Positions 31,337-60,773 are shown, counted from the first letter of the stretch. The stretch is DNA of 64,000 bases from a virus (IMGVR_UViG_3300027908_000024:12860-76859); one strand, 5' to 3'. A program made the numbers and translations. The notes: a model not told the origin generated them from the sequence alone.

Positions 31337-31482
31337 GAACGATCTCTGCTGGGATGGACGACCGAAGTATTCAACCACCGACCACGATGGAACACAAGAG
31401 AAGGGCGAGTGCAAAGGCGATGCCAACAGCGAAACGTGCCGGATAATCGGAAAAATTCACCCAAATTTACTCGCAACTGACG

Positions 31483-35898: not shown

Positions 35899-35906
35899 GG
35901 ATCTGC

Positions 35907-36284
35907 TTACTCGCTTTGCTTCTCTCGTGCCAATTGAATTTCCAGTGCCTCTTGAGTCGTCACGGGCTTGCTCTTGAAGGTCTTCTGCACCTGATACACG
36001 GGTTGAAGATCCTTGTGAGGCTGCCTGCCAGCATCGCGCAACAGCGGCACCACGTTTCCTTCCCGGTCGCGATATGTAACGGGTATTTTCTCCTCGCTGT
36101 TTCGCGATGGTGCCTGTGGATCGAGCCAACGACATTCCGGCCACACCGGGTTTCCTTGTGGCTTCCAATCACGAGCGAGAAGAAACTCACCCGAGGTTGC
36201 GAAGTCGTAGACGCTGGAATCTTCGCCAGGCGCAACGGCTATCCCAGAATTCTCCGCGACGGTTGCCGTTCGCTTGCGTGCCAC
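35907..36284 (-). CDS. Hypothetical protein between the two capsid genes
   Basis: 125 aa, GTG start after a repeat element. Confidence 0.6.
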   Translation of the reverse strand: MARKRTATVAENSGIAVAPGEDSSVYDFATSGEFLLARDWKPQGNPVWPECRWLDPQAPSRNSEEKIPVTYRDREGNVVPLLRDAGRQPHKDLQPVYQVQKTFKSKPVTTQEALEIQLAREKQSE

Positions 36285-36884: not shown

Positions 36885-37009
36885 AGTCATTAGTCACTGG
36901 TCATTGGTCATTGGTCACTGGTCATTAGTTTGGCAGGACACTCGCATGGTCGTGGCCTATTTGTCGGCAGGGCGACAACTAATGACGAATGACCAGGGAC
37001 CAAGGACTA
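36885..37009. repeat. GGTCATT heptamer tandem repeat with a partial inverted arm
   Basis: (agtcatt/ggtcact/ggtcatt)x6 ... aactaatgacgaatgaccagggaccaaggacta, directly after the MCP stop codon. Confidence 0.8.
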
Positions 37010-42661: not shown

Positions 42662-42988
42662 TTAGAGCTTGCTGATCGCAACCTGAAGTTGCGCCGATTG
42701 GCGCTCGGCAAACACCTGGAGTTGCCGGTAGTCGTCCGGCGTATCATCAAGTTCCTTGAGCGGTGCCAGGTAATCGCTCATCGACGCCTTGTCGGCTTCG
42801 GCTCTGGCGCGCTTGAGCCAATCGGCAAGCCACAGCTTCATCCTCCGGCCAAGCTCCGCGTGGATATTCTCCATGCTGCCGTCGTTTCGGTAGTTCATCG
42901 GCAGGCTAGCGAGATATTTCTGGACCGTCGAATCGAGTTCTCGGGAGAGTGTGGTCAAGGCGAGATGGGATAACTGTTGCTGACTCAT
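42662..42988 (-). CDS. Hypothetical protein
   Basis: 108 aa from MSQQQL. Confidence 0.55.
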   Translation of the reverse strand: MSQQQLSHLALTTLSRELDSTVQKYLASLPMNYRNDGSMENIHAELGRRMKLWLADWLKRARAEADKASMSDYLAPLKELDDTPDDYRQLQVFAERQSAQLQVAISKL

Positions 42989-43035
42989 TGTCGGCTCCGG
43001 CTGGTGGTCGCGAATGGCGGGATGATCGTAACCGG

Positions 43036-43296
43036 TCAGTCCATCACATGGCAATCCACGTCCGATTCTTCCACGACCGGCCCCAACCGTGCCACGGCCG
43101 ACAGTCCGAGCAATCGCGCCGTCCAGGAATCTCTTTCGACGATGGCCGCAAACCGCGATCCGACCGGAAGGCCGAGCAGCGCCGGTGGCAGGAGATCAAC
43201 CCTGACGCGCTCGACTCTTCCAGATTCCCAGCGAATGCGCGTCAGGAAACCTTTGGAGAGACGAGTGCCGATCTGACGTTGAATATATGTGTTCAT
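43036..43296 (-). CDS. Hypothetical protein
   Basis: 86 aa, 4-nt overlap with the upstream gene. Confidence 0.45.
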   Translation of the reverse strand: MNTYIQRQIGTRLSKGFLTRIRWESGRVERVRVDLLPPALLGLPVGSRFAAIVERDSWTARLLGLSAVARLGPVVEESDVDCHVMD

Positions 43297-43592
43297 GGTT
43301 GTGATAATCCGTAACTTCCCAGGAAACGCCGCTCGAAATCAGTCATGCTGGCCATGAGCGAGGAGTAACTCTCTCCAGGCCAGAGACGCTCTTTGGGCGT
43401 CCCCAGGCTGAGGCAGACGATCTTCTCCAGGTTCGGTGCCAACTCTCGTGAGAGCGCCAACAGATCAAGCATGTCCTGCATGGAGGCTGGATCGACGGTC
43501 AATGCCTGAAACTCCGCGCCGCGCATGTCGGCCGGATCAGGATAGTTGGTCAGGCGTTTGCCGTCAGCGGAGCGGATGCAGTTGCGACACAT
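43293..43592 (-). CDS. Hypothetical protein
   Basis: 99 aa, co-oriented. Confidence 0.5.
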   Translation of the reverse strand: MCRNCIRSADGKRLTNYPDPADMRGAEFQALTVDPASMQDMLDLLALSRELAPNLEKIVCLSLGTPKERLWPGESYSSLMASMTDFERRFLGSYGLSQP

Positions 43593-43595
43593 TGA

Positions 43596-43865
43596 TCAGC
43601 CCTCAGTCTTCGGCATCTCCAACCCGGCATCGGCATACATGGCGCGAACGAATATCCAAATATCACTATGTCCGGTGTTCGTGGTGCGGGAATAAAAACT
43701 GAGGCGGCGATTCAGTTCTTTGAGAAAGTCCACGGAAGGCGGCTCCATGGCGCGGAGAAGCGCCAATTCCGATTGGTATTCCTCGACCTTGGCTTTTTCG
43801 ATTGCCAACGCCTTTTCATAGTTTTCGATCTTGTCGGCAAGAGAACCATAGACGTGTTCACTCAT
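43596..43865 (-). CDS. Hypothetical protein, paralog of 44304..44573
   Basis: EHVYGS...PPSxxFLxELxRR...YADAGLEMPKTE shared. Confidence 0.7.
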   Translation of the reverse strand: MSEHVYGSLADKIENYEKALAIEKAKVEEYQSELALLRAMEPPSVDFLKELNRRLSFYSRTTNTGHSDIWIFVRAMYADAGLEMPKTEG

Positions 43866-43950
43866 CGCGTTCGCTCCCTTCAATCGGTTCAAGTTCCTCT
43901 TCGCTAATCGGTTAAGACACTACCCACAGTTACGGCACATGGGAGCTTCC

Positions 43951-44298
43951 TCATTCATCGTAACAAGGAGCGCAATAGCATGGCTCTGTATTGCCGCAAA
44001 GTTTGCAATAGCCATCCATGATGCGCTCATGGACATCACGCAACTCTTCACGGGTCATTTCCGCCATGAACGAACGAATCGCGGTGACGAGCAGATCGAC
44101 AGCTGAAACCGGGTTGATAGGAACCTCGCGAACCAGAGTATCACCACCATCCGCGAAGTGTGCCGATCGGCCGTTCGCAAGCCAACAACAACCGGAGTGG
44201 ACTTTGATAGCCAGGTTGCAGTTTCGCGCCAGGAAAACCGCGCCATCGCGAAGGTGGCGCAGTTTGACCCAGAGAAAATCATCATCGTTGTCTTCCAT
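43951..44298 (-). CDS. Hypothetical protein with a C-terminal Cys cluster
   Basis: GYCKLCGNTEPCYC; GGAG RBS. Confidence 0.6.
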   Translation of the reverse strand: MEDNDDDFLWVKLRHLRDGAVFLARNCNLAIKVHSGCCWLANGRSAHFADGGDTLVREVPINPVSAVDLLVTAIRSFMAEMTREELRDVHERIMDGYCKLCGNTEPCYCAPCYDE

Positions 44299-44303
44299 CG
44301 CTA

Positions 44304-44573
44304 TTACTCCGTCTTTGGCATCTCCAGGCCGGCATCTGCATAGAGTGCCTTGATAAATGTCGGGACGCCACTTACATCGGCCAGTGCCAGCGTATAGGCA
44401 TGGTAACGTCGGCGAAGTTCATCAAGGAACTCTGGTGACGGTGGCAACATGGCGAGAAGCGACTCAATTTTTGCCTGTGACTCATCAACATTGGCGCGAT
44501 GATTTGCCAGAGATTTTTCCAGAATATCCATCTGGTACGCGGCCGATCCATAGACGTGTTCGTTGAACATCAA
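44304..44573 (-). CDS. Hypothetical protein, paralog of 43596..43865
   Basis: Same conserved motifs. Confidence 0.7.
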   Translation of the reverse strand: MMFNEHVYGSAAYQMDILEKSLANHRANVDESQAKIESLLAMLPPSPEFLDELRRRYHAYTLALADVSGVPTFIKALYADAGLEMPKTE

Positions 44574-44740
44574 TATGGCTCCATCTGATCAGCCTTCAAC
44601 TCTACACCGGACTCCCGATGTAGCTCGAAGACAAAATCCATCACGGATTCGTAGATTGAATTGTAGCCGCGCCGGCGCGATCGCTCCAGCAATTCGGCGA
44701 GGAATTCCGGTGACGGTGTTTCGGGGATCGCCTCATCCAT
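44570..44740 (-). CDS. Small hypothetical protein
   Basis: MDEAIPETPSPEFLAELLERSRRR; shares PSPEFLxEL with the adjacent family. Confidence 0.5.
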   Translation of the reverse strand: MDEAIPETPSPEFLAELLERSRRRGYNSIYESVMDFVFELHRESGVELKADQMEPY

Positions 44741-44996
44741 GTTTGCTCTCCGTATCACGCAGTCGCTGACGGATCGAATCATAGATAACCCCAGGCGAAC
44801 AGATTCTCGATTCTTCATCAACCTCCAACTGCCGTATCTTGAGCGCGACCATGTAGGGTGCCAAGGTGAGCAGCTCGAACGAGAACAAGTCGCATGGCTG
44901 CTTAAGGAGCAGGTTCAACTGCTCTCTTGAGAAGTAGACCACACCGATTGGCAACTCGCGCTCTGGCTCGCAAGTGCCTTCAAGAGGACAAGGCAT
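44733..44996 (-). CDS. Hypothetical protein
   Basis: 87 aa, AGGAG RBS. Confidence 0.5.
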   Translation of the reverse strand: MPCPLEGTCEPERELPIGVVYFSREQLNLLLKQPCDLFSFELLTLAPYMVALKIRQLEVDEESRICSPGVIYDSIRQRLRDTESKHG

Positions 44997-45016
44997 CAGT
45001 AACTCCTTTGCTTGGC

Positions 45017-45739
45017 TCAGAGGAACTCGCGAAAGTTGATCTTGTGTTCTGGTTCTTGCGGAGTCGCGGCCGGCACACCGAACGGAGGCAACTCGTAGGC
45101 GGCCAACTCGACTGTCTTGGTGACGCCTGGCTCAAACGCAACCTCGATCTTGCCGTAGAGTGCCGTGCCGTCCTCGCTGATCGTCACGTCCTGCTGGCAC
45201 TGGCTCAGATCAACGCCGGTTGGGTCGATCTGATCGCCGTTGAAATCACGCTGACCATCGAAAACGATGCCACAGACGCCATCAGCGACGAGTCGCTGAG
45301 TTTGTTCAAAGGCGCGACGCACCTTTTCCTTATCCGCTGCCTCTTTGGCTTCCTCCGCGATCCGCCACGGCGTCTTGGGATCGGGCTGGCCGGGGACGCT
45401 GAAGCCGATGAACTGGCCAATGGCGCGTTCACCAAGGACGCGCAGCGCGGCTGGCATCTCTGGATGAGCATTCATGAAATCCTGGATCTCGCAACTCTGC
45501 TCCGCGCCGCAATAGACCGGCTCGATTTCGTGGATATACTCACCTTCGCCGATGATCGGGAACGATGGATGCTGGAGCCTGAAGACAAGATGGCCGCGCA
45601 GAAAAAGTTTGTCCTCGAAGACAGACTCTATGACGGTATTGCCTGGCAATTGCAACAGACTGACGAGAAACTCTCTTGCCACACGGCAAACGCCGACACG
45701 CCGATCATCTGAGGTATGAACTGCTGCTGACTCACTCAT
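45017..45739 (-). CDS. Hypothetical protein, paralog of 45736..46146 with a C-terminal extension
   Basis: RRVGVCRVAREFLVSLLQLP...QFIGFSVPGQ. Confidence 0.7.
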   Translation of the reverse strand: MSESAAVHTSDDRRVGVCRVAREFLVSLLQLPGNTVIESVFEDKLFLRGHLVFRLQHPSFPIIGEGEYIHEIEPVYCGAEQSCEIQDFMNAHPEMPAALRVLGERAIGQFIGFSVPGQPDPKTPWRIAEEAKEAADKEKVRRAFEQTQRLVADGVCGIVFDGQRDFNGDQIDPTGVDLSQCQQDVTISEDGTALYGKIEVAFEPGVTKTVELAAYELPPFGVPAATPQEPEHKINFREFL

Positions 45740-46146
45740 GGCTGTTCTCCTGCTTGTGGTTTCTCTTCCTCCGGCATCGTCGGCTCATCCTGCCCCGGCA
45801 GTTTGAAGCCGATAAACTTGCTCGCCGCCTGTGCGGCCAATCGTTTCAGGCTCTCCGGTGCATCAGGATGTCTACCCAGAAAGGCGAGGATCTCCGCCTG
45901 ATCGTCCTGACCAATATACCAGGGCTCGATAAACGGGATACGCTCACCGAACGCCACGGGTGGAAACGAGGCGTGGCACAACCGCAAAAGGAACGGTCCG
46001 TTGAGATCGTGCTGGTCGCTCCACAGGTTGTCCAGTTCCGTGAAGGTCGGAAGTTGGAGCAATTGCAGGAGCATCTGGCGGGAGACGGAGCAGATGCCGA
46101 TGCGGCGGGAGGCGCTGGGTGATTGTGGAACTATAGGGCCGCTCAT
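45736..46146 (-). CDS. Hypothetical protein, paralog of 45017..45739
   Basis: RRIGICSVSRQMLLQLLQLP...KFIGFKLPGQ. Confidence 0.7.
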   Translation of the reverse strand: MSGPIVPQSPSASRRIGICSVSRQMLLQLLQLPTFTELDNLWSDQHDLNGPFLLRLCHASFPPVAFGERIPFIEPWYIGQDDQAEILAFLGRHPDAPESLKRLAAQAASKFIGFKLPGQDEPTMPEEEKPQAGEQP

Positions 46147-46510: not shown

Positions 46511-47101
46511 TCATTTCTCCACACCCCGGCCGTGTTCATCCCTGCTCTTGTGGTGACTCTCGGGATGGTGCGGTTTTTTCGGTTCGACGACGCCTTCGAC
46601 ATCGGGCACGTCCTCGACCTCGGTGGGGTTTTCTTCGTCACGCTTGCGCTTGTCGTCGTCTTGTTCGTCCTTGGGCTTGGCGAAACAATGGCCGTGTTCG
46701 TCACGCGAGCAATCGGAGAGGTTGTCGCCCCGGCGCTTGGTGATGGGTGCGAAAATGCCCTTGGCTTCGTCGGGTTCGTTGCTGGATTCTTCGCTCTCTT
46801 CGCCCTCGTCGGCCATGATCTCAGCAGCGCCGGCGCGGGCGGCTTCTTCATCCACGTAGTTGCCGTCCTCATCGCGCGGCATCTCCAGCAAGAACAGCGC
46901 GGCGGCAAGTTCCTGATCGGTCATGGAGTCGCGATCAGGCTTGGCCAGTTCCTTGCCATGCTCGTCGCGCGGGAGATCCTTCTTCTCTTTGGCCTGTTCG
47001 GCGCGGATCTTGTCCCAGGCTTTATCCAGGTCCGCTTCCTGTTCTGGGGTCAGTTCAATCTCTTCGGGCTGGGATTCGTCTTGCTTCGGTTCTGCGCTCA
47101 T
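46511..47101 (-). CDS. Acidic RDEHG-repeat protein; N-terminus is a candidate immunity peptide for the upstream GNAT-like domain
   Basis: 196 aa, ATGA overlap with the 2191-aa gene, 3 RDEHG plus 1 RDEDG. Confidence 0.7.
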   Translation of the reverse strand: MSAEPKQDESQPEEIELTPEQEADLDKAWDKIRAEQAKEKKDLPRDEHGKELAKPDRDSMTDQELAAALFLLEMPRDEDGNYVDEEAARAGAAEIMADEGEESEESSNEPDEAKGIFAPITKRRGDNLSDCSRDEHGHCFAKPKDEQDDDKRKRDEENPTEVEDVPDVEGVVEPKKPHHPESHHKSRDEHGRGVEK

Positions 47102-50100
47102 GCTGCCCTCCTACTGCTTGCCATGTAAGCCTCCAACACCTTCCGGCTCCGCGAGCCTTCCGTGAGATCGAATTCGGCCTGCGTCATGTCGCTGCCCTCA
47201 GACAGCCACCAGTCGGAACCGAGAATCACGGTGCGGTCCTTGACGGGCTTGCCCAACTGCCGGTCCTTGTCGGCGCAGTTCTTGCGGACACGCTCAGCTT
47301 CTACATCGTTGATATAGTGCGTCACGTCTGGCATTGCCATTATATCAAGAACGCTCTTGGCGTCGGGAAATCGCTGCTTGATTTTATTCTTCGTATTGTA
47401 ATCGAACTTATCGATCTTCTGATCGTAGCCAAAGCGCGGCCAGGTATAGTAGCCGTTGAAATCACCCTTCCTGAGACTAAAACTTCCGGCTGCATGGGTC
47501 GCGATGTAATCGAAGCCGTGATCTGCTCCGTTCTTGACCTCGCCACTGAAAATCTCGAATCCCAGACCGCCAGCACGGTATTCCTCCTTGATGACCAGAA
47601 GATTGTTGTGGATGAACTTCTTGCCTTTTTTATCGACGCCCAGGAATCGCGAGCAGCCATTCAGTTTCGGATGGCTGATCTGGACACGAATCCCGTGACC
47701 ATCAAGGGAATAATCCTCGCCCTTGCGCTTGTAATCGATGCTGGCGCCTTCTGGTACACCGATGATCTTGATGACCGTCTTGTCATCCATCTGGCCGAAG
47801 ATTTCATCGGCTTCCTTTTCGGTATCTCTTCTGGCCTGTGCTGGTCGCGCGGGTACTGGTCGCTGTGCAGGCGCGGCTGGTTGCACCGGGCGGGCTGGCA
47901 TGCGGTTATCGGTTGGCGCAGGTGTGGTGCCCGCCGCTCGTGAGGCATTCGCTGGATCAATGATGTCTCGCTGTCTTGCCTGCAAGCGTTCCAGTTCTTC
48001 CTCAGCAGCCACTACAACGGCGTCACGATCCCTGTCGCCCCAATGGGCCTGCATCCTCATTCTGCCGGTATCATCGAAAACCTGCCAGCGATAGACCGGT
48101 TCGCCCTGGCTATTGTGCTCCGTTGCGATCCGAACCGTCGCCTGCATGGCGCCGGCAGCGTCCACGATGGAGCCGATGGTATCGGGATCTGGCGCAGGCG
48201 ATTCATCTTCTGGTCCCCATGAAGCCGGCGACGATGCTCCCGCCGCTTCGGGTCGTGGAATGGGGAATTCCTCCGGCGCAGGAGTTAGCGCTGGAGTTGC
48301 CTGAGCGGCCTGGCGTTGATTGGTGTACTTGGCCAGCGTTCGTTGAGCGATGCGCTCCGCGTATTCGGCCTTGCGGCCACCGGAGGCACGCACGGCAAGT
48401 TCTTTCTTGACGGCCGTGATCTGCGGCCTGGTCAGACCGTTGAAGGCTGCTGCCAGTTTGGCCGGGGTGTCGAATCTTCCCGACTGCAATTCTCTGGTGA
48501 TGCGCTGCGCCAACTGTTGCGGACTTTCAACACCGTGGATCTGCGCATCGACCGGGATCTTGCCGCAAGCGATGCGGTTATTGCTGCTGTAGCAGATCCG
48601 CCTGCCAGCGGCATCACGGTTTTCAGAGAAACCACGAACATTGCCGTGCTCGTCACGAACTGCTTCGGGTCTTGGCGCTGGTGGTTCGGCAGGCTCAGCA
48701 GCCGTGGTTCGGCGCGATGAGCCTTCTGCGGATGCGTTTGGATTGCGCGCCGGCACGACCCGGCCAGAATCATTGAGCGTAAACCATCTACCAGAGGGGC
48801 CTTGCCAGACCTCGCCTTCGCGGCGCGGCGTCGTGGCTGCCTTGCGATAGAGGATGAGCGGATCAAGAGTCTTCAGGTTGCCGTGTTCGTCTCTGTCCAT
48901 CGGATCATCCTCTGTTGCCTGCCAACCATTCTTGCGCTCACAGGATTTTGTGATCGGTCGGCCATGAGGATCACGCTCGTCGAAGCGAGCCAGGGATTTC
49001 TCTTCGGACGATGGTTCCTCATCTTCCAGAATCGCAAACTTGTCGCGAAGGCTTTCGGAAACCTTGCTGATGGTTTCAAACATGGTTTCATCATAGTCTA
49101 CGGCAGCGCTCTCGAACGCTCCAAGGGCATCCTCATAGCGCTCTCCCGCCTTGTCGTTTCGCGAATCGGCGCGCTCGAATGTCGCTTCCCATTTCGCGAA
49201 GGCACGCTCATAGTTGTCCTGTAGTTTTGTTGAATTCTTCTCCCATTTAGCATAGGTCTTGTCGAATTCCTTGCTGGCGTTTTCGTGGTCGCGGTCAAGA
49301 CGTGCGACTTCTTTCTGCCAGGATTGCCATTCGGGTGTATTTTCTTCCGGTTCATCGGGATACTCTGGCTCGTCCGGTGGCTGAGGCTCATCTGGGATGA
49401 TCGGCGCTTCTGGTTCAGCGGCGCGTACCTCATCAAGAGCCTTGCTGGCTTCCTCTTCTGAGGCGGCGCGCTCAGTGAACTTTGAAAGCGCCTGCTGCAA
49501 CGCAACCCCATACTTGGTCGATGCCTTGCCGAGCGGAGTCAATTCTGCATGCGCATCCACTTCACGGAGCTTTTCAATCGCACCGTCGTAACTGGATACC
49601 AGAGCGTCCGCATAGTTTTGTGCCGCTGCGGTTATTTCGCTGGCACTGGCCTGACTTTGGCTGTATGCGGTCTTGAGTTCGTTGAAACGCTGTGCCGCCT
49701 CGTGCCGTTTATCTTGGCCGTCTACAAGATGCTTATCGGCAGCATCGACAGCATCTAGTGTGGCGTCTGCTTTCGTGGTCTGGGTCGTTGCTGGAGCCAC
49801 CGGTTCTGGCGCTGGCTGTTGAGGCACTTCTGGTTTGATCTCTGGAGTAACCTCTGCCGGCGCGGCTGGCTTTTGCTTTCCGGCGTACTGTTCACCGTCT
49901 GCCAGCGCCTGATCCTTGCTATCGCCCCATTGCCCCTGAGCGGCAAGTTGCCCGTCGTCGTAAAATGCTGCCCAACCGTAGACCGGTTTGCCGTCAAGAT
50001 TCCCTTCAGCGAGTCGGACCGAAACATTGCCCTGCGCGCCGCCATCAACCTTGCCGATGTCCTGGACGTAGCCACCATGCTGCACCTTGGCGGGATCGAT

Positions 50101-53100
50101 CTTCTGATCGGATTCTGGAGACTCCTCTGGAGGCTTCTTTTGTTCGATCTGGCGACCGTGCTCATCGCGCTGATCGGCTGATGCTGGCGGAGTCTGGGTT
50201 GGTTGCGCTGATTGTTGGCTTGCGGCTTGTGGAGTTGCTGGCTGCGACTGTCCGTTCGGCGAACAGGGATAACCTGTTTCCGTATCGTGATAGCGGTTTT
50301 GATCACCTTGTTCGTTCCTCTCACACGATTTGCGCCAGCGCGCGAGTGTATCAATCGCCTTCTTCTCCCCGACAACCCCAACCTCTGCCCATTCGCACGC
50401 TTCCCTGCTACAGCGCCGGCCGTCACCATCGGTCATCTCAAGCGTGGCTGCGCCACAGATCGGACAAGTGGCTGGCAATATACTCTTCTGCTCCAGCACA
50501 TGCTCTTCTTCGCTGGCCTCATGGTGTTCTTCCTTATTCTCTCCCGTGGCATTCTCAATAATTGCTGGTGTCAGTGCCTCAAGTTCCTCTTTGCTGAACA
50601 CCGGCCGATGAGAAAACTCCACCGCATTGGCGAGCGCGTGGGCCTGTGCGTAGGTCTTCTGATGATGCTTCATCAACAGGTATTCAGCATACTCATGCAG
50701 CGCGATCAGCGGAATCTCATCGGGTTCCGTGTCGGCCTCGATCCAGATTTCGCCGTTGGGTTGCCAGGGATAGACGGCCGGGTTCCCCCCTTCAAGCCAA
50801 TCGGTCTTGAAACGATCTCTGACCACTTCACCATCAACCAAATATATGTTGATCGGCTTGGCCGGATTGTCAGCGGTTCCCGAGCCGTCATCCTGAAGCG
50901 TGGCATAGTGCGAGACGTAGATGTTATCCGGCACGTCCCCACCAGCATGCATCTCGATCCCGGAGGCTTTCTCTCTCTCAGCTTTCTCCTTCTTGAGTCC
51001 ACGCTCGTAGGCTTCCGGACCCGATACGCCCTTATTTTCGGCGCGCTTGCGCGTCACGGCTTTGTCGAGGACGAACGGTAGCTCTTCTTCCGGCAACCTG
51101 TCAGAAATCCAGATGGCGTTCTCCGGTATCAGGTCCGGGAAGTCAGAGCGAATCGCCTCGATGCCGAATTCCTCATCATCGATGTTGAGATCGCGGAGCG
51201 TCTTGGCATCGATGATAAAGACCCGGTAGCCGGCATAGTCCATCAGGTGGCCGACCACACCGCCGAACGCAGCATTGGCAACATCTTCTGGTTTGCGAAC
51301 TGGCTCTTCTCCACTCTGATGGCTTACCGAAATACCTTGCGGCAGGCATCTTCCATGTTCGTCGCGGTCGCAATTGGCGAAAAACGAAGATTTGGCAAGT
51401 TGGCTTGCCAGACGTTTCGTCAGCAGATCCGCCAACGCATCGCCAGAGGATTGCTCACGCGCCCGGCCATGCTCATCACGCTCCTGGTGTTCATCCTCGC
51501 CACCTTCCGCATCGCCCAGGTCAAAATCAATATCGGCTTCTGGTGAGCCAACTCCCATCTCCAGGCTCTTCTTCTTTGGTTTGATATTCGCCTTGCCGCC
51601 ACGCGCAACAAACTTCTGCGCCGCCGTATCATCCATGAGCCGGACCGCATGATAGGCTTGCTGAAATAGCTTGAGCTTCTGCTCATGCGACAGCGACTTG
51701 CCGTCCTTGCCCTTCATCGCCTTGATCTGTTCCGCGATACCTTGAAGCGCTTTCTTGTGATGCTCGCCCATGTTGGCATTGAGCTTGACCTTAACTTTGA
51801 TCGAGTTGCCGTCCTTGCGCCAGCGCAGTGTATTTGGCTTCTGCGGTTGTTTGCCGGCAGAGGCAGATTCCTTGACCAGTTCCGGCCTGGTAACTTCGAC
51901 AACAGCCTTGTTCATGTCCTCCTGGGACTTGATTTCGCCTCGGTTGACCTTCTCCTGAAGTTTGGCCTCAGCCCACTCGGGGTTCTTGTCGCTGTTGGGA
52001 ATCGGCTGACCGTTCTGCACGGCCTGGAAATAGGGGCCGGCCGTGGTCTGGACGGCCTCATCGTGAGCCGCTGTAACGGCCTCTTGGAGCGCTTCTGGAG
52101 CGACGGCGTCCATTACCTGTGCTGTGTCTTTGAGGACATCGATATGATCGTTCGTGTCTGGGCGTAGCGCTATGCGACCATCAACGGAAAAAATATCCGG
52201 TGGTTTAGTGAATCCGGCAGATTCTTCGGGTATCTCGGCTTTATCTCCTAGAATCCAGCCTTTCTGCTTGAAAAACTCAGTCGCCTTTGGGAACTCTCGC
52301 TGAACCTCATTCATGGAAATCTGCGAGCCATAGAGCAATCTGGAAAATTCGGCTAAGGCTTCGCTCGGTGATGTGTTAGCATAACTCGTGAGCGACGCAG
52401 AATATTCGCCGAGATCTTTGCTCTTGTCGATAAATTCTTCCTGAAAAATATTGCCCCATTCCTCTGATCCGCTAACTGCATGCTTGCCTTCTGAACTATC
52501 GAGTGCATGGCCAAATTCATGGGCGTAAACTTCGTCCTCCAGTGATCCGGCAAAATAGCCATAGCGGCCGTAAAAGGCTTTCTCATTGCTGCCGTCAAGA
52601 TGAAGTTTGCCATTGGAATTATTGTAGCACCCGGCGACATTAACGGCCCCTTTGGCAACGCCTTCTCGCTGCGCGGTCAATTTCTCCCGGTATTCATCTG
52701 AGATGAATGAATTCTCCAACGCACCGTCAAGAACTGCAAGGCCAAGGGTTTTGTTGTCACCATAGAACTCTGTTCCGCCGTCGTTGCCCTTCTGGATCGC
52801 ATCAAGGACGGTTTGTGGCATCCTGGCGCTGACGCGGTCAAGTGCCGCGCCATAGGCTTTCTTTTTGGCGTCAGGCAGATTGCTTGAGGCCAGAGAATCA
52901 TGAATGCGTTGCATTCCGGTGTGGCGACCATTCTGGTCGGCGGATGCGTTTTTGCCCGCCGATACCTGCTGAGCGCCACTCCTGTCAGATGGCTGTTTTT
53001 GTCGGCCATGCTCATCGCGATCAGGTGCTGGTTCTTGCTTGCCTGACGGGTCACGTTCTACCGGCGATGGCAAGGTCTGATCCGTCTTGGAAGGAGCCTT

Positions 53101-53673
53101 CGCATTACCATGCTCGTCTCTTTGAGCGTTCGGATCGGCCGCCCATGTATTGTGCAGATGACCCTGAGAATCCTCGATGTTGACGCGCCAATGGCCGGGA
53201 GATGCCTCATAGGGCTGATCGGTTGGATGCGCTGGATCAGCGGTCGCTGTGCCAGATGTTGACGAGTCCGCCTTCGGCATGCCGGTAGCAGCGCTGGCGG
53301 CCTTGCGGAACGGAACCGTAACGCCTTTGGTTTTCGGCTCAATCGGTCGGCCGTGTTCATCGCGTGGCGATTCTTTATCACCGCCTCCCTCTTCTCTGGC
53401 CTCACTGGCTCTCAGATAGGCGCTCCGATAGGTATAGCGGAGGTTTCTCAGGAACGCTTCAGGACTGTCCTGAGACCCGATGAGTTGTCTGCTCTGTTTG
53501 TCCGATATGGGGTGCGCCAGGATGTTTCGCAGCATCAACGAATCTTCCGGCTCCAGCGCGAACGCGCCATCGCTGTAACGGATCTTGCCCGCCACTTCAT
53601 CCTGCCATTCGGGACAGCGGTAGAAGGTAACTTCCAGTGTCGGAGCGCTGGTTGTGGTGGCTGCTTCGCTCAT
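47098..53673 (-). CDS. Giant polyvalent protein: ATLF-like HExxH metallopeptidase, second HE domain, helical region, C-terminal GNAT-like domain
   Basis: 2191 aa. YAHEFGHALD...YANTSPSEALAEF (about 52170-52900); LHEYAEYLLM (about 50690); NNLLVIKEEYRAGGLGFEIF...GFDYIATHA...GYYTWPRFGYD (about 47100-47800); 8 RDEHG motifs. Confidence 0.8.
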   Translation of the reverse strand: MSEAATTTSAPTLEVTFYRCPEWQDEVAGKIRYSDGAFALEPEDSLMLRNILAHPISDKQSRQLIGSQDSPEAFLRNLRYTYRSAYLRASEAREEGGGDKESPRDEHGRPIEPKTKGVTVPFRKAASAATGMPKADSSTSGTATADPAHPTDQPYEASPGHWRVNIEDSQGHLHNTWAADPNAQRDEHGNAKAPSKTDQTLPSPVERDPSGKQEPAPDRDEHGRQKQPSDRSGAQQVSAGKNASADQNGRHTGMQRIHDSLASSNLPDAKKKAYGAALDRVSARMPQTVLDAIQKGNDGGTEFYGDNKTLGLAVLDGALENSFISDEYREKLTAQREGVAKGAVNVAGCYNNSNGKLHLDGSNEKAFYGRYGYFAGSLEDEVYAHEFGHALDSSEGKHAVSGSEEWGNIFQEEFIDKSKDLGEYSASLTSYANTSPSEALAEFSRLLYGSQISMNEVQREFPKATEFFKQKGWILGDKAEIPEESAGFTKPPDIFSVDGRIALRPDTNDHIDVLKDTAQVMDAVAPEALQEAVTAAHDEAVQTTAGPYFQAVQNGQPIPNSDKNPEWAEAKLQEKVNRGEIKSQEDMNKAVVEVTRPELVKESASAGKQPQKPNTLRWRKDGNSIKVKVKLNANMGEHHKKALQGIAEQIKAMKGKDGKSLSHEQKLKLFQQAYHAVRLMDDTAAQKFVARGGKANIKPKKKSLEMGVGSPEADIDFDLGDAEGGEDEHQERDEHGRAREQSSGDALADLLTKRLASQLAKSSFFANCDRDEHGRCLPQGISVSHQSGEEPVRKPEDVANAAFGGVVGHLMDYAGYRVFIIDAKTLRDLNIDDEEFGIEAIRSDFPDLIPENAIWISDRLPEEELPFVLDKAVTRKRAENKGVSGPEAYERGLKKEKAEREKASGIEMHAGGDVPDNIYVSHYATLQDDGSGTADNPAKPINIYLVDGEVVRDRFKTDWLEGGNPAVYPWQPNGEIWIEADTEPDEIPLIALHEYAEYLLMKHHQKTYAQAHALANAVEFSHRPVFSKEELEALTPAIIENATGENKEEHHEASEEEHVLEQKSILPATCPICGAATLEMTDGDGRRCSREACEWAEVGVVGEKKAIDTLARWRKSCERNEQGDQNRYHDTETGYPCSPNGQSQPATPQAASQQSAQPTQTPPASADQRDEHGRQIEQKKPPEESPESDQKIDPAKVQHGGYVQDIGKVDGGAQGNVSVRLAEGNLDGKPVYGWAAFYDDGQLAAQGQWGDSKDQALADGEQYAGKQKPAAPAEVTPEIKPEVPQQPAPEPVAPATTQTTKADATLDAVDAADKHLVDGQDKRHEAAQRFNELKTAYSQSQASASEITAAAQNYADALVSSYDGAIEKLREVDAHAELTPLGKASTKYGVALQQALSKFTERAASEEEASKALDEVRAAEPEAPIIPDEPQPPDEPEYPDEPEENTPEWQSWQKEVARLDRDHENASKEFDKTYAKWEKNSTKLQDNYERAFAKWEATFERADSRNDKAGERYEDALGAFESAAVDYDETMFETISKVSESLRDKFAILEDEEPSSEEKSLARFDERDPHGRPITKSCERKNGWQATEDDPMDRDEHGNLKTLDPLILYRKAATTPRREGEVWQGPSGRWFTLNDSGRVVPARNPNASAEGSSRRTTAAEPAEPPAPRPEAVRDEHGNVRGFSENRDAAGRRICYSSNNRIACGKIPVDAQIHGVESPQQLAQRITRELQSGRFDTPAKLAAAFNGLTRPQITAVKKELAVRASGGRKAEYAERIAQRTLAKYTNQRQAAQATPALTPAPEEFPIPRPEAAGASSPASWGPEDESPAPDPDTIGSIVDAAGAMQATVRIATEHNSQGEPVYRWQVFDDTGRMRMQAHWGDRDRDAVVVAAEEELERLQARQRDIIDPANASRAAGTTPAPTDNRMPARPVQPAAPAQRPVPARPAQARRDTEKEADEIFGQMDDKTVIKIIGVPEGASIDYKRKGEDYSLDGHGIRVQISHPKLNGCSRFLGVDKKGKKFIHNNLLVIKEEYRAGGLGFEIFSGEVKNGADHGFDYIATHAAGSFSLRKGDFNGYYTWPRFGYDQKIDKFDYNTKNKIKQRFPDAKSVLDIMAMPDVTHYINDVEAERVRKNCADKDRQLGKPVKDRTVILGSDWWLSEGSDMTQAEFDLTEGSRSRKVLEAYMASSRRAA

Positions 53674-55154
53674 AATTTTGCCTCCGATCCCCAGACTTCA
53701 TCGAAGCCATCAGGCTCTGCCAGATCGGGCAGTTCGTTGATCTTCTTGTACTTTCCCGAAAGAGCAACGTCCCATCTCTTTTTCGTGAACGCGATGGAAG
53801 GCTCGTCAATGCCAAGACGTTTCAGTTCGCTCTCAACCTCCGGCCATTTCTCCTTCATGCCCGTGATGTCCGGCATCGGCAGGCGCTTCTTCCTGGCATG
53901 ATCGGTCAGTGCCACAGTACGGAAGTCCTTGTAATCTCCGGCACCGGAGGGGAAAGACAGGCCGTTGTCGATCAGGACCAATTTATCCTCTCCGGTCAGC
54001 ATCCAGTTGGCCCAATGGCGATCGCCGTTGCCGGTCAGGTAATCAAAAAGCGCTGCGCGAGCAAGGTCATGCTCGCCGTCGTATTCGTCGCCGACATGGA
54101 AGTGAACTGCTTCCTTGGCACCGCTGACCCATTGCTGAATACTGCCCTGTTTGCCGTCGTGCTCCCTTACAGCCGTGGCTGGCACCAGATCGGCAAAGCC
54201 AAGCAGATCGGCCACCGCGCTGCTGGCCGCTTCCCGTAGATAATAGGTGCCAGCCTTGATGCCGTCACGAAGTCCAGGATCTTCGCCATCGACTGGTTTC
54301 CAGACACCGACCGTGCCGTCCTCCAGTTGGACCTTTTCGCTCTTGTTGGCACCACCGCCCAGGTTGGTTGCCTTGGCGATCGGCGAAGTGGTCAGGCGCT
54401 CCAGAACTTCTGGCCGTGATGGCGTGCTGGCCTCAGATGGGCCAGAAGTCTTCTTGGCGGCGGCGCGTTTTTGTTCGAGGTAGTCTTTTCCTTGCTGAAG
54501 CGCTTCTGCCTTGCCAAGGCTCCAATCCGAACCATCGATTTCTTCGCCGGTTTCGTTGTCGAATGCTGCCCAGCGGAACACGGGTCCGGATTCGTGATTG
54601 CCCTTCTGGAGAATCACCTGTTCGGTGATGTCTCCCTCGGAGTTGGTGATATGACCTAACTCAGCGCCGCCGGCATAGGTGACGTTCTCAGGATCGATCT
54701 CGGGCGCAACAGCCGGTGGCGTGACGGCCGTGGGGTTTGTCTGCGAGGGCTGAACATCGACCACGGGTTGAGCGGGACCGGTTTTGTCGGGCTGCGCTTC
54801 CGCTACAGCATGCGCAGCCGGTGCCGGCTGCTGCGCCTGACCATTCGGCGAACACGGATGCCCCAACTCATCATGAAACCGGTTCGGATTGCCATGTTCG
54901 TTCCGCTCACAAGATTTCGTGACCGAACGGCCATGCTCATCACGCGCTGAAGGCTCATCACTCTTCGGCGCTTCTACCTTGGGCTTCGGCTTCTTGCGAT
55001 CACCGATCCGCCGGCCATGCTCGTCACGAACCTCCAGCGCCAGGCCGATCATCTTGGCGATGCAATCGGCCTCCAGGTCGTCGCCGATGAAGCGCTCAGC
55101 GGCGGATCGTTTCGATTTGCTCTCTTCCTTGTCGGTAGGCACAGCGGTTGCCAT
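53670..55154 (-). CDS. RDEHG-repeat protein with a C-terminal PI3/4-kinase/HipA-like kinase domain
   Basis: GVWKP, YYLREAAS...LVPAT, GSIQQWV, FDYLTGNGDRHWANW, VLIDNGLSF. Confidence 0.8.
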   Translation of the reverse strand: MATAVPTDKEESKSKRSAAERFIGDDLEADCIAKMIGLALEVRDEHGRRIGDRKKPKPKVEAPKSDEPSARDEHGRSVTKSCERNEHGNPNRFHDELGHPCSPNGQAQQPAPAAHAVAEAQPDKTGPAQPVVDVQPSQTNPTAVTPPAVAPEIDPENVTYAGGAELGHITNSEGDITEQVILQKGNHESGPVFRWAAFDNETGEEIDGSDWSLGKAEALQQGKDYLEQKRAAAKKTSGPSEASTPSRPEVLERLTTSPIAKATNLGGGANKSEKVQLEDGTVGVWKPVDGEDPGLRDGIKAGTYYLREAASSAVADLLGFADLVPATAVREHDGKQGSIQQWVSGAKEAVHFHVGDEYDGEHDLARAALFDYLTGNGDRHWANWMLTGEDKLVLIDNGLSFPSGAGDYKDFRTVALTDHARKKRLPMPDITGMKEKWPEVESELKRLGIDEPSIAFTKKRWDVALSGKYKKINELPDLAEPDGFDEVWGSEAKL

Positions 55155-55156
55155 GA

Positions 55157-58100
55157 TTAAACCTCCTCCAGAAAGACGAGCATCTTGGCACGCTTCGATC
55201 CGTAGCCATCGGAATTCTTGATCGCAATATCCTCGCGGACGCTGACGATCTTGTAGCGCGTGCCAGCCGCCTGGATAACCTCGTCCTCACCCTTGTTCTC
55301 CGAGATGGGATCGACAAACAATCCCGTCTTGGCCTTGATAGCGAAGAAGAACCGGCCGTAGCCGTTATCGGTGGAGAAAGTATCCCAGGCATACTTGGCG
55401 TTCAGGCTCGAAGAGGCGATGAAGCCCATCTCGAAATCGGCCCCGGTGTCGCGCGCCTTCTCGATAGCGCTCACCAGTGCATCATGGGACGCCTTCCTGG
55501 ATGGACCAACGCCACGAAACAGCGCGTTGACCGTATCGGGCAACGGCCCAGCTTCCCGGATGGCGCTCTGGATTGCATCAAAGGTAGCGCGATCACGGGA
55601 GTCCAGACAGTTGAACTCAGGTGGGCAACTCTTCAGTTTGTCGTTGAACTGCTTGTAATCTGATCCAGTATAGAACCGGATGGCGCTTTTCTGTTCGCTC
55701 GACAGACTGTCCAGATGGTCCTCGAAATCACGGAATACGGCAGCGATGCTGGGTTTGGCCGGCATGCGGAACACGGCAGCAGACATTTCCTCTTCGGTCC
55801 AGTGTTCCGTCTTGTCTGGTGTGTCGCCCTCGTCGTCGTAATCGGACCCGCTATAACTGATGTCGTCATCGGGCGGCTCGGGCTCAGGCTCATCGTTCTC
55901 TTCCGCATAGGATCGTCCATCCGATTTCGCCTCGCTCCTGTCATTCGTCCAACTGCCGGTTTCCAGTTCGTTTCCTGATTCATCTTCGGCAACCCAGCGG
56001 TAAACATCGATCGGTTCGGAATCCTCTCTGTCTGGGAACGGGTTATAGGTTCCATGTTCCAGATAGACAGAAAACTTTTCCGATTCATCGTATGCCTGGT
56101 AGGTCGTGTAATCGGCCAGGTAATCGCGGTCCTCGTATTCAACCTCGCTCTCGTCAATCGAGCCGTCCCATTCGCCGTTCTCCTCCTGTTCTTTCTTCTT
56201 TGCATTGGTCTTGTCGATCTCTTTCTGTTTGGCCATCAGTTGATGCAGTTTTTCCTGCGCCTGAGACAGCACGTCCGGCATGCTGACGGACCACTCGCCG
56301 TTGAGGCGCAGAGTTCCCTCATGGTCGTGGACTTCCCAGCGATGAACGGTCTGGCCGTTGACAGTGCTTGACTGAATGCTGATCGTGGCCTTGGTTTCGC
56401 CGTCGGCATCCACGACCTTGCCGGCAACACCGCCGGCTTCTTCCTTGGCTGGTTCTGGCTTGTTGGCGGCGGCCGTCTGTTTCTTCAATTCTGCCTCAAC
56501 GGCCGCGACGGCTTCTGACTTATCGGCCGTCCATTCGCCGGTTGCCAACACCTTGTCCTTCTTGTCAACCACGTCCCAACTGAATACCGACGTTCCATCA
56601 TGATCTCCGGTGATCAGCATGCCGTAGGCAAGCGAAGCGCCCTTGTCATCGAATGCCGTTGCCTGGTATTCGGAACTGGTTATCTTTACCTTCTCTGGAT
56701 CAATGACCGGAATGGCGAACGGCAGATCGCTGGGTTTTTGATTCGCCTGCTGGTTCAGTTCCTCTTCCGCGCCAGCAAAAGTGGCCAGCGCTTGCGATGG
56801 AGCCTGTCCGGCAGGATTGGCCGGAGCGGACTGTTGCGCGTTGGGATTCTTGGCCGGAACCACATGGTTCTCATCGTTGAGCGTGAACCAACGTCCGCTC
56901 GGACCCTGCCAGACCTCGCCTGGCTTTTTTGGCGCATCGTCCTTGACGCGCAGGATCAACCGCCCGTGTTCGTCTCGGGTCGGACTGGTTCCTGGCTCGG
57001 TTGCGAAGAGGCTTTCTGCTCGGCTTTTCGCCGTGCCGTTTCGGCCGTGACTTCCGGCATCAGTTCCGGCCTGGCTTCTGCCTTGTCGGTGAGTTCCTTC
57101 AGGAGCGCCTGTTGGTCGTCCGTGAGCGTCCCGCCCTGGCCAAGATGCTGCTTTATCTGGTCGAGATTGTAGGCGTCGAGCATGAATTGCTTCTCGGCCG
57201 ACAAGCCCTTCTGCGATGTCAGCGGGAATTTTTCCGGATTCATATAGTCCGACAGTTTCATCGGTCAGTTCCTTCAGAAGTGCTTCTTCATCGTGGTTCT
57301 GTGCTTCCAGATACTTGACGGCTTCTTGCCTGTCCTCGATGAGCCTTGCCTTGCCGAGTCCCTGATTGTTGTCGATCACGTTGGCCGGTAGATCGGTTCG
57401 GCGCTTCAAGAGATCGATCGCGGTCTTTCTGGCGCTGATGTTGGCCTTGACGGCTATGCGGATCGGCACCGTGCGGGCTGGCTGGCCCTGTTGTCTGGCC
57501 TGAAGCGCTCTACTCACCACGCCGCGCCAGGCTTCTCTTGGTTCTCTGTCAACGAAAGTATACTGTGCGTCGAAGCCTTCCTTAATTGCCAGGTCCAGGT
57601 CCTGCTCCACCTTCCTCGGATCAGCCCCGACCTGATCATAACGCAACGGGTAATCGGCTGCATCGAAGAACTGACCCAGCGCTGTGCCCTTCCCAGAACC
57701 GCCGCCGCCGGAAAGCACCATGACGGTGTTGTTTCCCGATCCCTTCATCTCCTTCAAAAGTTCGCTGTAGAGCTGATAGTTCGCCTCGCCGGCCGCGCTC
57801 TGAAACAACGCCGCGTTGGTGCCCTGATAACCTGGAAACAGGTCGCGCCACTGATCGGTATCAAGGCAGACGCTCTTGAGCTTGTCGCCGTCGAACGTCC
57901 CCTGGCGCCGAAGGTATTCCTGGCGCAGGTAGGGGAATTCCTGCTGGGAAATCCTCTCAGCCTCTGCCTTGATCGTGCTGTCGTCAACCTTCGGCCGGCC
58001 GTGCTCGTCGCGGTCGTGGTTTGTGGCCGACAGATCAGAAGTTCCATCCTGGGTCGCGTTTTGCTGTTCGTTGGGATTCTTGGCCGGGACAACGTGATTT

Positions 58101-58231
58101 TGATCGCTGAGCGTAAACCATCTTCCAGACGGCCCCTGCCAGACTTCTCCCTGACGTTTGGGAGTGTTGTCCTTGCGCAAACCGGCAAGAGAATCTCTCT
58201 TGGCTCTTTCTTGGATGGTTGCGCTGGTCAT
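55157..58231 (-). CDS. Polyvalent protein: zeta-toxin-like P-loop kinase plus C-terminal ADP-ribosyltransferase (VIP2/Alt-like R-S-E clade)
   Basis: VMVLSGGGGSGKGT (P-loop); AIRFYTGSDYKQFNDKL, LFRGV, FIASSS, GEDEVI. Confidence 0.85.
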   Translation of the reverse strand: MTSATIQERAKRDSLAGLRKDNTPKRQGEVWQGPSGRWFTLSDQNHVVPAKNPNEQQNATQDGTSDLSATNHDRDEHGRPKVDDSTIKAEAERISQQEFPYLRQEYLRRQGTFDGDKLKSVCLDTDQWRDLFPGYQGTNAALFQSAAGEANYQLYSELLKEMKGSGNNTVMVLSGGGGSGKGTALGQFFDAADYPLRYDQVGADPRKVEQDLDLAIKEGFDAQYTFVDREPREAWRGVVSRALQARQQGQPARTVPIRIAVKANISARKTAIDLLKRRTDLPANVIDNNQGLGKARLIEDRQEAVKYLEAQNHDEEALLKELTDETVGLYESGKIPADIAEGLVGREAIHARRLQSRPDKAASWPGRDAHGRPTGAPEGTHRQGRSQAGTDAGSHGRNGTAKSRAESLFATEPGTSPTRDEHGRLILRVKDDAPKKPGEVWQGPSGRWFTLNDENHVVPAKNPNAQQSAPANPAGQAPSQALATFAGAEEELNQQANQKPSDLPFAIPVIDPEKVKITSSEYQATAFDDKGASLAYGMLITGDHDGTSVFSWDVVDKKDKVLATGEWTADKSEAVAAVEAELKKQTAAANKPEPAKEEAGGVAGKVVDADGETKATISIQSSTVNGQTVHRWEVHDHEGTLRLNGEWSVSMPDVLSQAQEKLHQLMAKQKEIDKTNAKKKEQEENGEWDGSIDESEVEYEDRDYLADYTTYQAYDESEKFSVYLEHGTYNPFPDREDSEPIDVYRWVAEDESGNELETGSWTNDRSEAKSDGRSYAEENDEPEPEPPDDDISYSGSDYDDEGDTPDKTEHWTEEEMSAAVFRMPAKPSIAAVFRDFEDHLDSLSSEQKSAIRFYTGSDYKQFNDKLKSCPPEFNCLDSRDRATFDAIQSAIREAGPLPDTVNALFRGVGPSRKASHDALVSAIEKARDTGADFEMGFIASSSLNAKYAWDTFSTDNGYGRFFFAIKAKTGLFVDPISENKGEDEVIQAAGTRYKIVSVREDIAIKNSDGYGSKRAKMLVFLEEV
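56956..57261 (-). CDS. Nested out-of-frame ORF inside the 1024-aa gene, candidate antitoxin for the zeta-like domain
   Basis: 101 aa with a protein-like composition, AAGGA RBS 7 nt upstream, starting exactly at the end of the P-loop domain. Confidence 0.55.
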   Translation of the reverse strand: MKLSDYMNPEKFPLTSQKGLSAEKQFMLDAYNLDQIKQHLGQGGTLTDDQQALLKELTDKAEARPELMPEVTAETARRKAEQKASSQPSQEPVRPETNTGG

Positions 58232-59618: not shown

Positions 59619-59829
59619 CTTCTTGCTCCAGTGCTTCTTCGATGGCCTTGATCCACTGTTTCTGTTCCTCGACGGCGTATTCAACCTTGAGGCTCAACTG
59701 CGTCTTTTCCAGATCATTGAGCGGTTCGGCACGCCATCTGGTTGTTTCTTGATGTGCCTCATAGGCGGCTTGGCCCAACTCGCCGATGCGGCCAAGCGCT
59801 AGACGGATCATTGATTTGAGGTTATTCAT
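59611..59829 (-). CDS. Hypothetical protein
   Basis: 72 aa, helical, coupled. Confidence 0.5.
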   Translation of the reverse strand: MNNLKSMIRLALGRIGELGQAAYEAHQETTRWRAEPLNDLEKTQLSLKVEYAVEEQKQWIKAIEEALEQEDE

Positions 59830-60773
59830 GCGGCATGCACCGTGGTTCTCAACCGATCCGCCAACGCGCCGATCTCTTCAGCCATGACCAGATTCATCAG
59901 CCACTCTCTCGGGATGCCATCTTCCCCGTAGTAGGCACCGGCCAGTTGCCCGACCACGGCAGCGGTGGTATCCGCATCATCGCCCAGATTGGCGGCAAGC
60001 AAGACAGCATCTCGGAAGTTGTCGGTCTTCAGGAAGCACCAGCAAGCCGCCTCCAGACAATCCACCACATAGCCGGAGCCGCTAATCTGGTCAATGGTCT
60101 TTTCCCGGTAGTCGCCCTTAAATATCCCCTGAATTTTTGGTGCGAGCGGCTTGACTTCTAGGAAGTCGAAATAGTCATCCTCGAACAGCAGATCATGCTT
60201 GCTGTTGCCCGACAGCGCGGCGAAAATCAGATCGCACAACAGCCGACAAGCATCGAGGCACAGCACGGAACCATGCGTAGTGCGCGAACTATCTTGCGCA
60301 GCCGCGATGGCGGCTGGCAAGCCCCGCCCGAGGTAGAACATCGGGATCGGTGCCAGTCGCATCAACGAACCGTTGCCCGAAGTGTTGAGATCCGTCGAAC
60401 CGCTGAACGGATTACCGTTGGCCTCGAAATGTCGAAGTGCCCGCGCCGTCGTCTGGCCGATGTCGAAGCACTTTCCTGTGCTGGAACGGAAGCCATGCCG
60501 CCACCAGTCGAGGTAGCGCTTCATCTGATCGTGGGCGCTAAAGCCGCGATGTTCGATCAGCGAATCCGCCAGACACAGCGCCATGCTGGTATCGTCCGTC
60601 CATGCCCCCACGGGCAGATGGAACGGTCCACCACCAACCATGTCAGTGAGTGGCTCAAAACTACCACGCGACATAAATTCTACCGTGGTGCCGATCGCAT
60701 CACCGACCGCCAGGCCAAGCAGACAGCCACGGAAACGCGAGGCGAGTGAGGGGCTTTTGGTTTTCATCAGCAT
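59826..60773 (-). CDS. draG: ADP-ribosylglycohydrolase (DraG/ARH family)
   Basis: GCLLGLAVGDAIG, WTDDTSMA, GNGSLMRLAP, SSRTTH, GDDADTTAAVVGQLAGA. Confidence 0.92.
   Translation of the reverse strand: MLMKTKSPSLASRFRGCLLGLAVGDAIGTTVEFMSRGSFEPLTDMVGGGPFHLPVGAWTDDTSMALCLADSLIEHRGFSAHDQMKRYLDWWRHGFRSSTGKCFDIGQTTARALRHFEANGNPFSGSTDLNTSGNGSLMRLAPIPMFYLGRGLPAAIAAAQDSSRTTHGSVLCLDACRLLCDLIFAALSGNSKHDLLFEDDYFDFLEVKPLAPKIQGIFKGDYREKTIDQISGSGYVVDCLEAACWCFLKTDNFRDAVLLAANLGDDADTTAAVVGQLAGAYYGEDGIPREWLMNLVMAEEIGALADRLRTTVHAA

Follow-up and report, generated by a model that had tools for sequence, protein, structure and literature searches.

Four adjacent genes of an uncultured phage carry some twenty copies of one pentapeptide, RDEHG, and the locus raises the question of what such a peptide does there. 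The genes lie in a window of 64,000 nucleotides, the whole stretch analysed here (IMGVR_UViG_3300027908_000024), which spans bases 12860-76859 of a linear viral contig from IMG/VR, 79.2 kb long, with an estimated completeness of about 65%; positions below are counted from the first letter of the window. Four open reading frames (ORFs) on the minus strand fill 46511-58231 and encode acidic products (isoelectric point, pI, 4.5-5.2) of 1024, 494, 2191 and 196 amino acids (aa), named P0001 to P0004. All four frames are open, the junctions read TAA-tc-ATG, ATGA and ATGA, and a GGAGG Shine-Dalgarno sequence stands ahead of each junction, which makes the translational coupling proposed in an earlier note on this DNA plausible. 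The explanation that we favour, with chances that we judge about even, is that RDEHG is a docking tag for head incorporation and that the linkers are processed by the prohead protease; the proteins so marked are probably carried in phage heads and injected. The protein class is known; new here is that a junction or leader motif, widespread yet apparently undescribed, occurs pared down and multiplied.

The exact pentapeptide occurs 15 times, as the earlier note had counted (2 copies in P0001, 2 in P0002, 8 in P0003 and 3 in P0004), together with five one-residue variants, RDAHG, RDPHG, RDEDG, RNEHG and RNEQG. From amino-acid composition 0.003 copies are expected, and 2000 shuffles yielded at most 1. 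Across the 20 local sites R and G are present in 20/20 and D in 18/20, with a further R after the G in 12/20; the flanks are more hydrophilic than average, and the sites lie in low-confidence hydrophilic inter-domain linkers. The copies use differing codons for Arg (CGC, CGT, CGA, AGA, AGG) and also for Asp, Glu, His and Gly. Because synonymous codons differ between copies, the motif has been kept at the peptide level and does not reflect a recent DNA duplication. It was claimed earlier that the shared motifs of this locus occur nowhere else in the window; this holds, on the whole contig, for the three longer ones described below and fails for RDEHG itself. A sixteenth copy (GAERDEHGHVV), at about 15644, belongs to an unrelated ORF of 124 aa (15366-15740, minus strand) that is far from the head-module genes. 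The chance expectation in six-frame translation is about 0.04 by a rough estimate, and this copy may or may not matter.

Codon usage also bears on whether the repeats are DNA-level recombination joints for the shuffling of effector cassettes. Conserved pre-toxin motifs in polymorphic toxin loci are thought to act as recombination joints, the motif marks module boundaries here, and modules have been shuffled between proteins of this type: the C-terminal ~240 residues of P0003 (residues 1950-2191; 47101-47826, minus strand) match residues 319-525 of P0007 (BLASTP 4e-26), in another order within an otherwise unrelated multi-enzyme protein. The codons of the 15-nt motif vary freely, though, and the three copies of a longer shared module, GEVWQGPSGRWFTL...VVPAxNPN (hereafter GEVWQ), which had been reported before and were all found again, are only 58-73% identical in DNA, with about half of their identical residues differing in codon. 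No identity stretch in this genome is therefore long enough for homologous recombination. This codon variability, at the motif and at the GEVWQ modules alike, contradicts DNA-level joints, and we regard them as highly improbable.

A profile built from the 20 local sites was searched against 1.84 billion representative proteins with a threshold of E <= 0.001, which 16 proteins reached. Beyond the products of this phage, the sole phage-like one was P0015, a 1745-aa polyvalent protein whose gene directly follows a capsid gene. It carries FDPSQP-RDEHG-RW three times and SEHP-RDEHG-RW once and has no domain in common with P0003 beyond the HExxH helix. The DNA of IMG/VR was then scanned for coding of D-x3-H-P-R-D-x2-G-R-F, with the reversed peptide as control, and at least 120 viral contigs matched vs 4 for the control. 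Among the matches listed, 123/123 were in frame, the median open frame was 617 aa and 31 frames were of at least 1000 aa; the residue before the first Asp was W in 63 and F in 40, and the commonest residues at the two free positions were E (44/113) and H (21/113). Since E and H are the commonest there, RDEHGR is the consensus core of a wider motif, [W/F]-D-[E/P]-S-x-H-P-R-D-x-x-G-R-[F/W]. As a kind, RDEHG is not special to this locus; the motif whose core it forms stands in at least 120 viral contigs.

The local sites share with this canonical motif the R-D-x-x-G-R core, the E/H middle, the place ahead of Zeta, ADP-ribosyltransferase (ART), kinase and zincin domains, and the head-module context. 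Canonical proteins have 1-4 copies each, whereas the local form numbers about 20 copies, has lost the prefix and the trailing aromatic and has E-H fixed; it appears to be a lineage-specific version pared to the core and multiplied. Vestiges of the prefix are visible at some local sites (WAADPNAQ-RD, SDEPSA-RD, DKESP-RD, RFDE-RD). Among the 1.84 billion representatives, no phage but this one turned up with the multiplied form that has no trailing aromatic. No Pfam family spans the wider motif, and literature searches for RDEHG and for the spelled-out motif strings returned no paper describing it; the motif is widespread and apparently undescribed. It is absent from the phage Mu proteins portal H, MuF, G, I and T, looked at for a tie to processing known from experiment, and from the N-terminal capsid-targeting signal of P1 DarB.

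The remaining profile matches were beta-hairpin turns in unrelated repeat proteins, such as VRDEHGNPV (Big-like) and RDENGRC (TIL-like), which suggest an intrinsic turn-forming propensity of RDEHG. They lend something to the idea that the motif has a role apart from head assembly, either as a beta-turn or metal-binding staple of the linkers or as a short linear motif that acts inside the host once injected. Asp, Glu and His serve as metal ligands. Two copies have a Cys on either side (C-x-RDEHG-x-C), and two Cys and three His occur in a second shared module, KSCERNExG...R(Y/F)HD...PCSPNGQ (KSCER), whose two reported copies we confirmed and to which a partial third, KSCERK, can be added. Most RDEHG copies have no Cys, on the other hand, the canonical form accompanies head-module proteins (MuF, portal, capsid neighbours) across many unrelated phages, and conservation across unrelated enzyme modules is not expected of a purely structural element, which leaves a role of this kind unlikely. 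Inside the KSCER module, the NR[F/Y]HDxxG stretch looks like another relic of the wider HPRDxxGR motif.

The position of the motif is consistent with docking. Among ten sampled canonical-motif proteins, it follows a MuF (3) or portal (1) domain and precedes Zeta-toxin or ART domains. In seven other proteins, which are free-standing, it lies at residues 7-26, and these proteins carry ART, lethal-factor-type zincin, PI3/PI4-kinase, SNF2/ResIII (DarB-like) or Rho_N/SAP domains. A place at the N-terminus of free-standing effectors of the same enzyme families fits the role of a targeting tag. P0029, a relative of the P0002 kinase, has YDPSQPRSSDGRF 45 residues upstream of its kinase domain. The local form likewise stands ahead of effector modules in head-module proteins. 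In P0001 the Zeta block (residues 68-345, delimited by BLASTP with R-D-E aligned) is bracketed by RDEHG-74 at its N-terminal edge and RDAHG-367 just beyond its C-terminal end. The interpretation offered earlier is in part supported, by the head module, by the lack of a MuF or portal domain in the four proteins and by the signals kept at the peptide level in the linkers; the new system does not hold.

Judged by their sequence, the four genes encode phage-type polyvalent proteins, a known class, which the searchable text of Iyer, Burroughs, Anand, de Souza and Aravind (2017, J Bacteriol; PMC5512222) describes as several unrelated conflict enzymes joined in one polypeptide, encoded beside head genes and with packaging into the head and injection predicted, and whose metallopeptidases it unifies with lethal factor. 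The architecture, the domain repertoire and the predicted packaging and injection all match that class, which is why we do not keep the label of candidate new system. P0001 (55157-58231, minus strand) reads, in order, GEVWQ, RDEHG, Zeta-toxin-like P-loop kinase, RDAHG, RDEHG, GEVWQ, three copies of a third shared module (the W-module) and ART. Its Zeta module (57197-58030, minus strand; Pfam Zeta_toxin 3.6e-6) is 44-52% identical to P0005-P0007. The ART domain, at residues 837-1002 (55226-55723, minus strand; Pfam ADPrib_exo_Tox 6.4e-12), also matches PHROG 21789, 'virion structural protein' (1.3e-6). P0002 (53670-55154, minus strand) has RDEHG-43, RDEHG-71, a KSCER module (with RNEHG-84 and NRFHDELGHP), a W-module and a PI3/PI4-kinase-like kinase at about residues 250-480 (Pfam PI3_PI4_kinase 2.5e-7); AF2 models the kinase with confidence and gives residues 1-245 a pLDDT below 50, although the alignment did not span residues 1-245. 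Relatives of the Zeta and kinase modules are likewise large proteins of several domains, whose genes adjoin those for portal, MuF or capsid.

P0003 (47098-53673, minus strand) holds, besides its eight RDEHG copies, RNEQG and RDPHG, together with a lethal-factor-type zincin, a second HExxE region, a zinc ribbon, a KSCER module, two W-modules, a coiled coil, a GEVWQ module and the shuffled C-terminal module. The zincin core (HEFGH; residues ~380-470, 52264-52536, minus strand) is of the anthrax lethal-factor type, matching the PDB sequences 2l0r_A (1.4e-5) and 4dv8_A (2.9e-4) by phmmer, with weak Pfam M90 and ATLF matches. The C-terminal module could be GNAT-like, a lead taken from Atlas feature neighbours that are partly Acetyltransf_1. 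Pfam searches of ten protein sub-segments at E up to 1 added nothing reliable. P0004 (46511-47101, minus strand; pI 4.5, 31% D+E) carries RDEDG besides its three RDEHG copies and has no recognisable domain. At least two unrelated effector or enzymatic domains thus share a polypeptide in P0001 (Zeta and ART) and in P0003 (zincin and the P0007-type module), and the zincin, ART, divergent kinase and Zeta-like kinase, with possibly a GNAT, are those of the polyvalent class. The locus had been credited with at least five toxin-like enzymes; four (Zeta, ART, PI3/PI4 kinase, zincin) have statistical support, and the fifth is the GNAT-like lead. Compared with polyvalent proteins as that searchable text describes them, this array differs in its ~20 pentapeptide copies, in its three lineage-specific modules and in its domain-less acidic fourth protein. 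A short repeated junction or leader peptide is not described in the searchable text of Iyer et al.

The neighbouring genes are head genes. On the same strand, 4-12 kb downstream of the four ORFs, are two Phage_capsid genes and the gene of a prohead serine protease of the S78 (HK97) type. The protease is part of a 1275-aa fusion (38787-42614, minus strand; Pfam Peptidase_S78 2e-5, AAA 7.4e-16; PHROG 80), in which the S78 domain (about residues 45-215, with His91 and Ser146) is followed by an AAA ATPase (about 476-700) and a charged scaffold-like tail of about 575 residues, and it is the candidate processing enzyme for the linkers. An unfoldase joined to a head maturation protease is unusual and could bear on the handling of giant cargo proteins. 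The major capsid protein paralogues (37007-38371, HK97 fold, Phage_capsid 6.6e-28; and 34735-36168, Phage_capsid 9.4e-30; both minus strand) stand in tandem, each with an N-terminal extension of 150-190 residues. Searches of the four proteins with Pfam (E up to 0.1) and PHROGs found no Phage_Mu_F domain, in line with what had been noted before, and neither a MuF nor a portal domain turned up in the rest of the contig. As the contig is only about 65% complete, the phage as a whole cannot be called MuF-independent. Virion packaging of the four proteins is a prediction, to which the PHROG 'virion structural protein' match and the following protease-linker model lend indirect support.

An ESMFold2 complex was computed for protease residues 25-215 and P0003 residues 88-124, with 3 controls. 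The complex scored 0.72 vs 0.01 for the best control, a mark reached by 51/78 solved complexes and by 2/108 mismatched pairs; runs agreed in at least 84% of contacts, and the pLDDT of the partner was at least 57. In the model the P0003 peptide pairs with protease strand 146-151, which bears the putative catalytic Ser146. This supports binding of the S78 protease to one P0003 linker, away from RDEHG itself. The linker element, VTVPFRKAAS (P0003 residues 118-127; 53293-53322, minus strand), lies 14 residues past RDEHG-104, and a second copy, LILYRKAAT (residues 1606-1614; 48832-48858, minus strand), lies about 18 residues past an RDEHG.

Two roles fit a conserved peptide at the boundaries of cargo modules, namely a docking signal or a protease site. 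RDEHG could itself be cut (for example RDE|HG) by the S78 protease or by the zincin in cis, so that the polyproteins are diced into single enzymes with no docking. The sites do lie at module boundaries and bracket the Zeta block, and cuts at every RDEHG would give domain-sized pieces of 293, 408, 513, 349, 398, 516 and 603 aa with short spacers. Both proteases are encoded at the locus, the modelled protease engages a motif-bearing linker, and zincin autoprocessing of polyvalent proteins is proposed in the searchable text of PMC5512222. Against this, the confident protease contacts are 14 residues downstream of RDEHG, many canonical-motif proteins have no zincin, and a scan of both capsid paralogues and the protease fusion found no RDEHG-like maturation site in any of the three. 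For a cleavage site, the roughly 14 residues over which the canonical motif is conserved are many. This motif is often placed at residues 7-26 of free-standing proteins, where a cut would free nothing, and the last copy in P0004 is 5 residues from the C-terminus. These last three points speak for docking; cleavage at RDEHG is a serious rival, though we hold it to be rather unlikely.

Under the docking explanation, the four polyvalent effectors would be made late alongside the head genes, be taken up by the procapsid and be delivered together with the DNA. The enzyme modules that they carry (Zeta-like, ART, PI3/PI4-kinase-like, lethal-factor-type zincin and others) would be strung along disordered acidic linkers. 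RDEHG would be a short linear element, recognised by some conserved component of head assembly, that recruits each module to the procapsid, much as the capsid-targeting sequences of T4 and P1 do, yet repeated and internal. The S78 protease would then cut the linkers, at least at the two [F/Y]-R-K-A-A-[S/T] elements past RDEHG sites, and so free the modules for ejection. For the four proteins, packaging, docking, cleavage and injection are what we infer.

Several points weigh against this explanation. The phage is uncultured, and packaging, docking and cleavage are predictions from sequence and a model. The confident contacts of the complex involve P0003 residues 118-124 (VTVPFRK); the motif residues H107 and R109 touch the protease only with an expected error of 5-7 A, and the hydrophobic-[F/Y]-R-K-A-A-[S/T] element follows only 2/20 sites, at like spacing. 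The H-P prefix and the trailing aromatic, both nearly invariant in the canonical form, are gone locally, with P at -1 in 3/20 sites, H at -2 in 1/20 and an aromatic after G-R in 0/20 (P, Q, L, A or C stands there), and the partner or role of the local motif may for that reason have changed. The capsid paralogues and the protease fusion all lack the motif in the sequence scan, and its docking partner is hypothetical. The canonical motif also follows MuF or portal anchors, which would make a targeting tag superfluous there, and a portal was not found on this incomplete contig.

Known systems of head cargo resemble the array in part. Capsid-targeting peptides are proven experimentally for T4 (internal proteins, Alt) and for P1 DarB (PMC9024508), itself a polyvalent protein, and there too a short peptide steers diverse cargo into the procapsid, as we propose here; in T4 the prohead protease afterwards takes the signal off. 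Signals of this sort occur once, at the N-terminus, and the T4 leader is cut by a gp21-type protease at L/I-x-E, whereas the local motif is internal, repeated and unrelated in sequence, and the local protease is of the S78 type and not T4 gp21. The MuF-fused polymorphic toxins (Jamet et al. 2017, BMC Biol; PMC5576092) likewise have toxin domains in the head module and are presumed to be delivered by the virion, unlike the four local proteins in having a MuF domain. The viral contigs sampled often have the canonical motif between MuF and the toxin domain, and the words motif, linker, junction and cleavage do not occur in the paper on MuF toxins. Encapsulin cargo-loading peptides are short and conserved, sometimes repeated in disordered regions, and dock cargo to an HK97-fold shell; they are hydrophobic (GSL-type) and usually C-terminal, unlike RDEHG.

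To our knowledge, how a phage chooses the head proteins that it injects is understood in molecular detail only for a few models (such as T4 and P1 DarB). A peptide that hundreds of unrelated head-module effectors have in common would open cargo selection to tests in many systems, and would supply a sequence rule by which injected effectors could be predicted and possibly a tag to bring foreign proteins into phage particles. The window is an informative extreme, with a five-residue motif in about 20 copies, also on an enzyme-less protein, and with the prohead protease modelled on one linker. A broader proposal, which we put forward tentatively and consider somewhat doubtful, is that HPRDxxGRF/RDEHG is a general cargo-loading signal of tailed phages, read across thousands of unrelated phages by a conserved procapsid component, most simply the prohead protease, in the way that encapsulin shells read their cargo-loading peptides, with this phage as an extreme multivalent form that loads an entire enzyme arsenal free of MuF. 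If true, the peptide would serve as a portable tag with which any chosen protein could be packaged into phage heads.

The W-module was predicted, from its six copies as alignment, to form four strands and a helix (pLDDT 87, pTM 0.71). The six copies given earlier were found again; the domain spans 80-90 residues and not the ~45 aa first assigned to it. It has no structural match at E <= 0.001 in the PDB or BFVD libraries, and its ESM Atlas neighbours are unnamed small viral proteins. An assignment to YegP/DUF1508 was rejected, as the matches were non-significant (3bid, probability 0.63; DUF1508 phage proteins, E ~0.1). Another junction peptide, A-P-x-G-G-V-x-V-x-G-K-x-F-x-G-G-Q-F-I-P, occurs in P0005 (L003), P0007 (L002), P0022 and P0027, relatives of the Zeta or kinase modules, after portal domains and ahead of effector modules. 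The local GEVWQGPSGRWF module, which has an equal place ahead of Zeta, may be the local counterpart of this ...G-G-[Q/R]-F-I-P junction. The two have a G-R/Q-aromatic core in common and are alike in position before the Zeta module, but homology could not be demonstrated. Neither was found in any of 118 canonical-motif proteins among the matches listed.

Close relatives of the phage were not found in IMG/VR with P0002, the capsid protein or a degenerate DNA pattern of the GEVWQ module as queries; P0001 had no tblastn match in GenBank phages, and P0004 had no homologue among 5.8 billion proteins. P0009, from another assembly, is a truncated, near-identical copy of P0003 with few substitutions and with 8/8 motif sites of the common part intact, and the phage has therefore been sampled more than once. 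Upstream of P0001 and on the same strand, a gene at 59826-60773 (minus strand) encodes an ADP-ribosylglycohydrolase (PHROG 6572, 8.9e-76). This enzyme may serve as an antidote to the ART domain or undo its action, the two being a writer-eraser pair that would shield the producing cell. Between P0004 and the protease gene, about ten small ORFs lie at 42662-46146 (minus strand). They include a paralogous pair, 43596-43892 and 44304-44573, with the common ending ...YADAGLEMPKTE, and a second pair, 45017-45739 and 45736-46146; the small paralogous ORFs are possible immunity or antidote proteins for the effectors. The contig also codes for two TPR+GT41 (O-GlcNAc-transferase-like) proteins and two very large methyltransferase/glycosyltransferase fusions, the genes lying at 25071-26768, 6850-9897 and 28964-31426 (minus strand) in the window and at 8488-10188 of the contig, outside it. 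These genes suggest that the phage carries out extensive DNA or protein modification.

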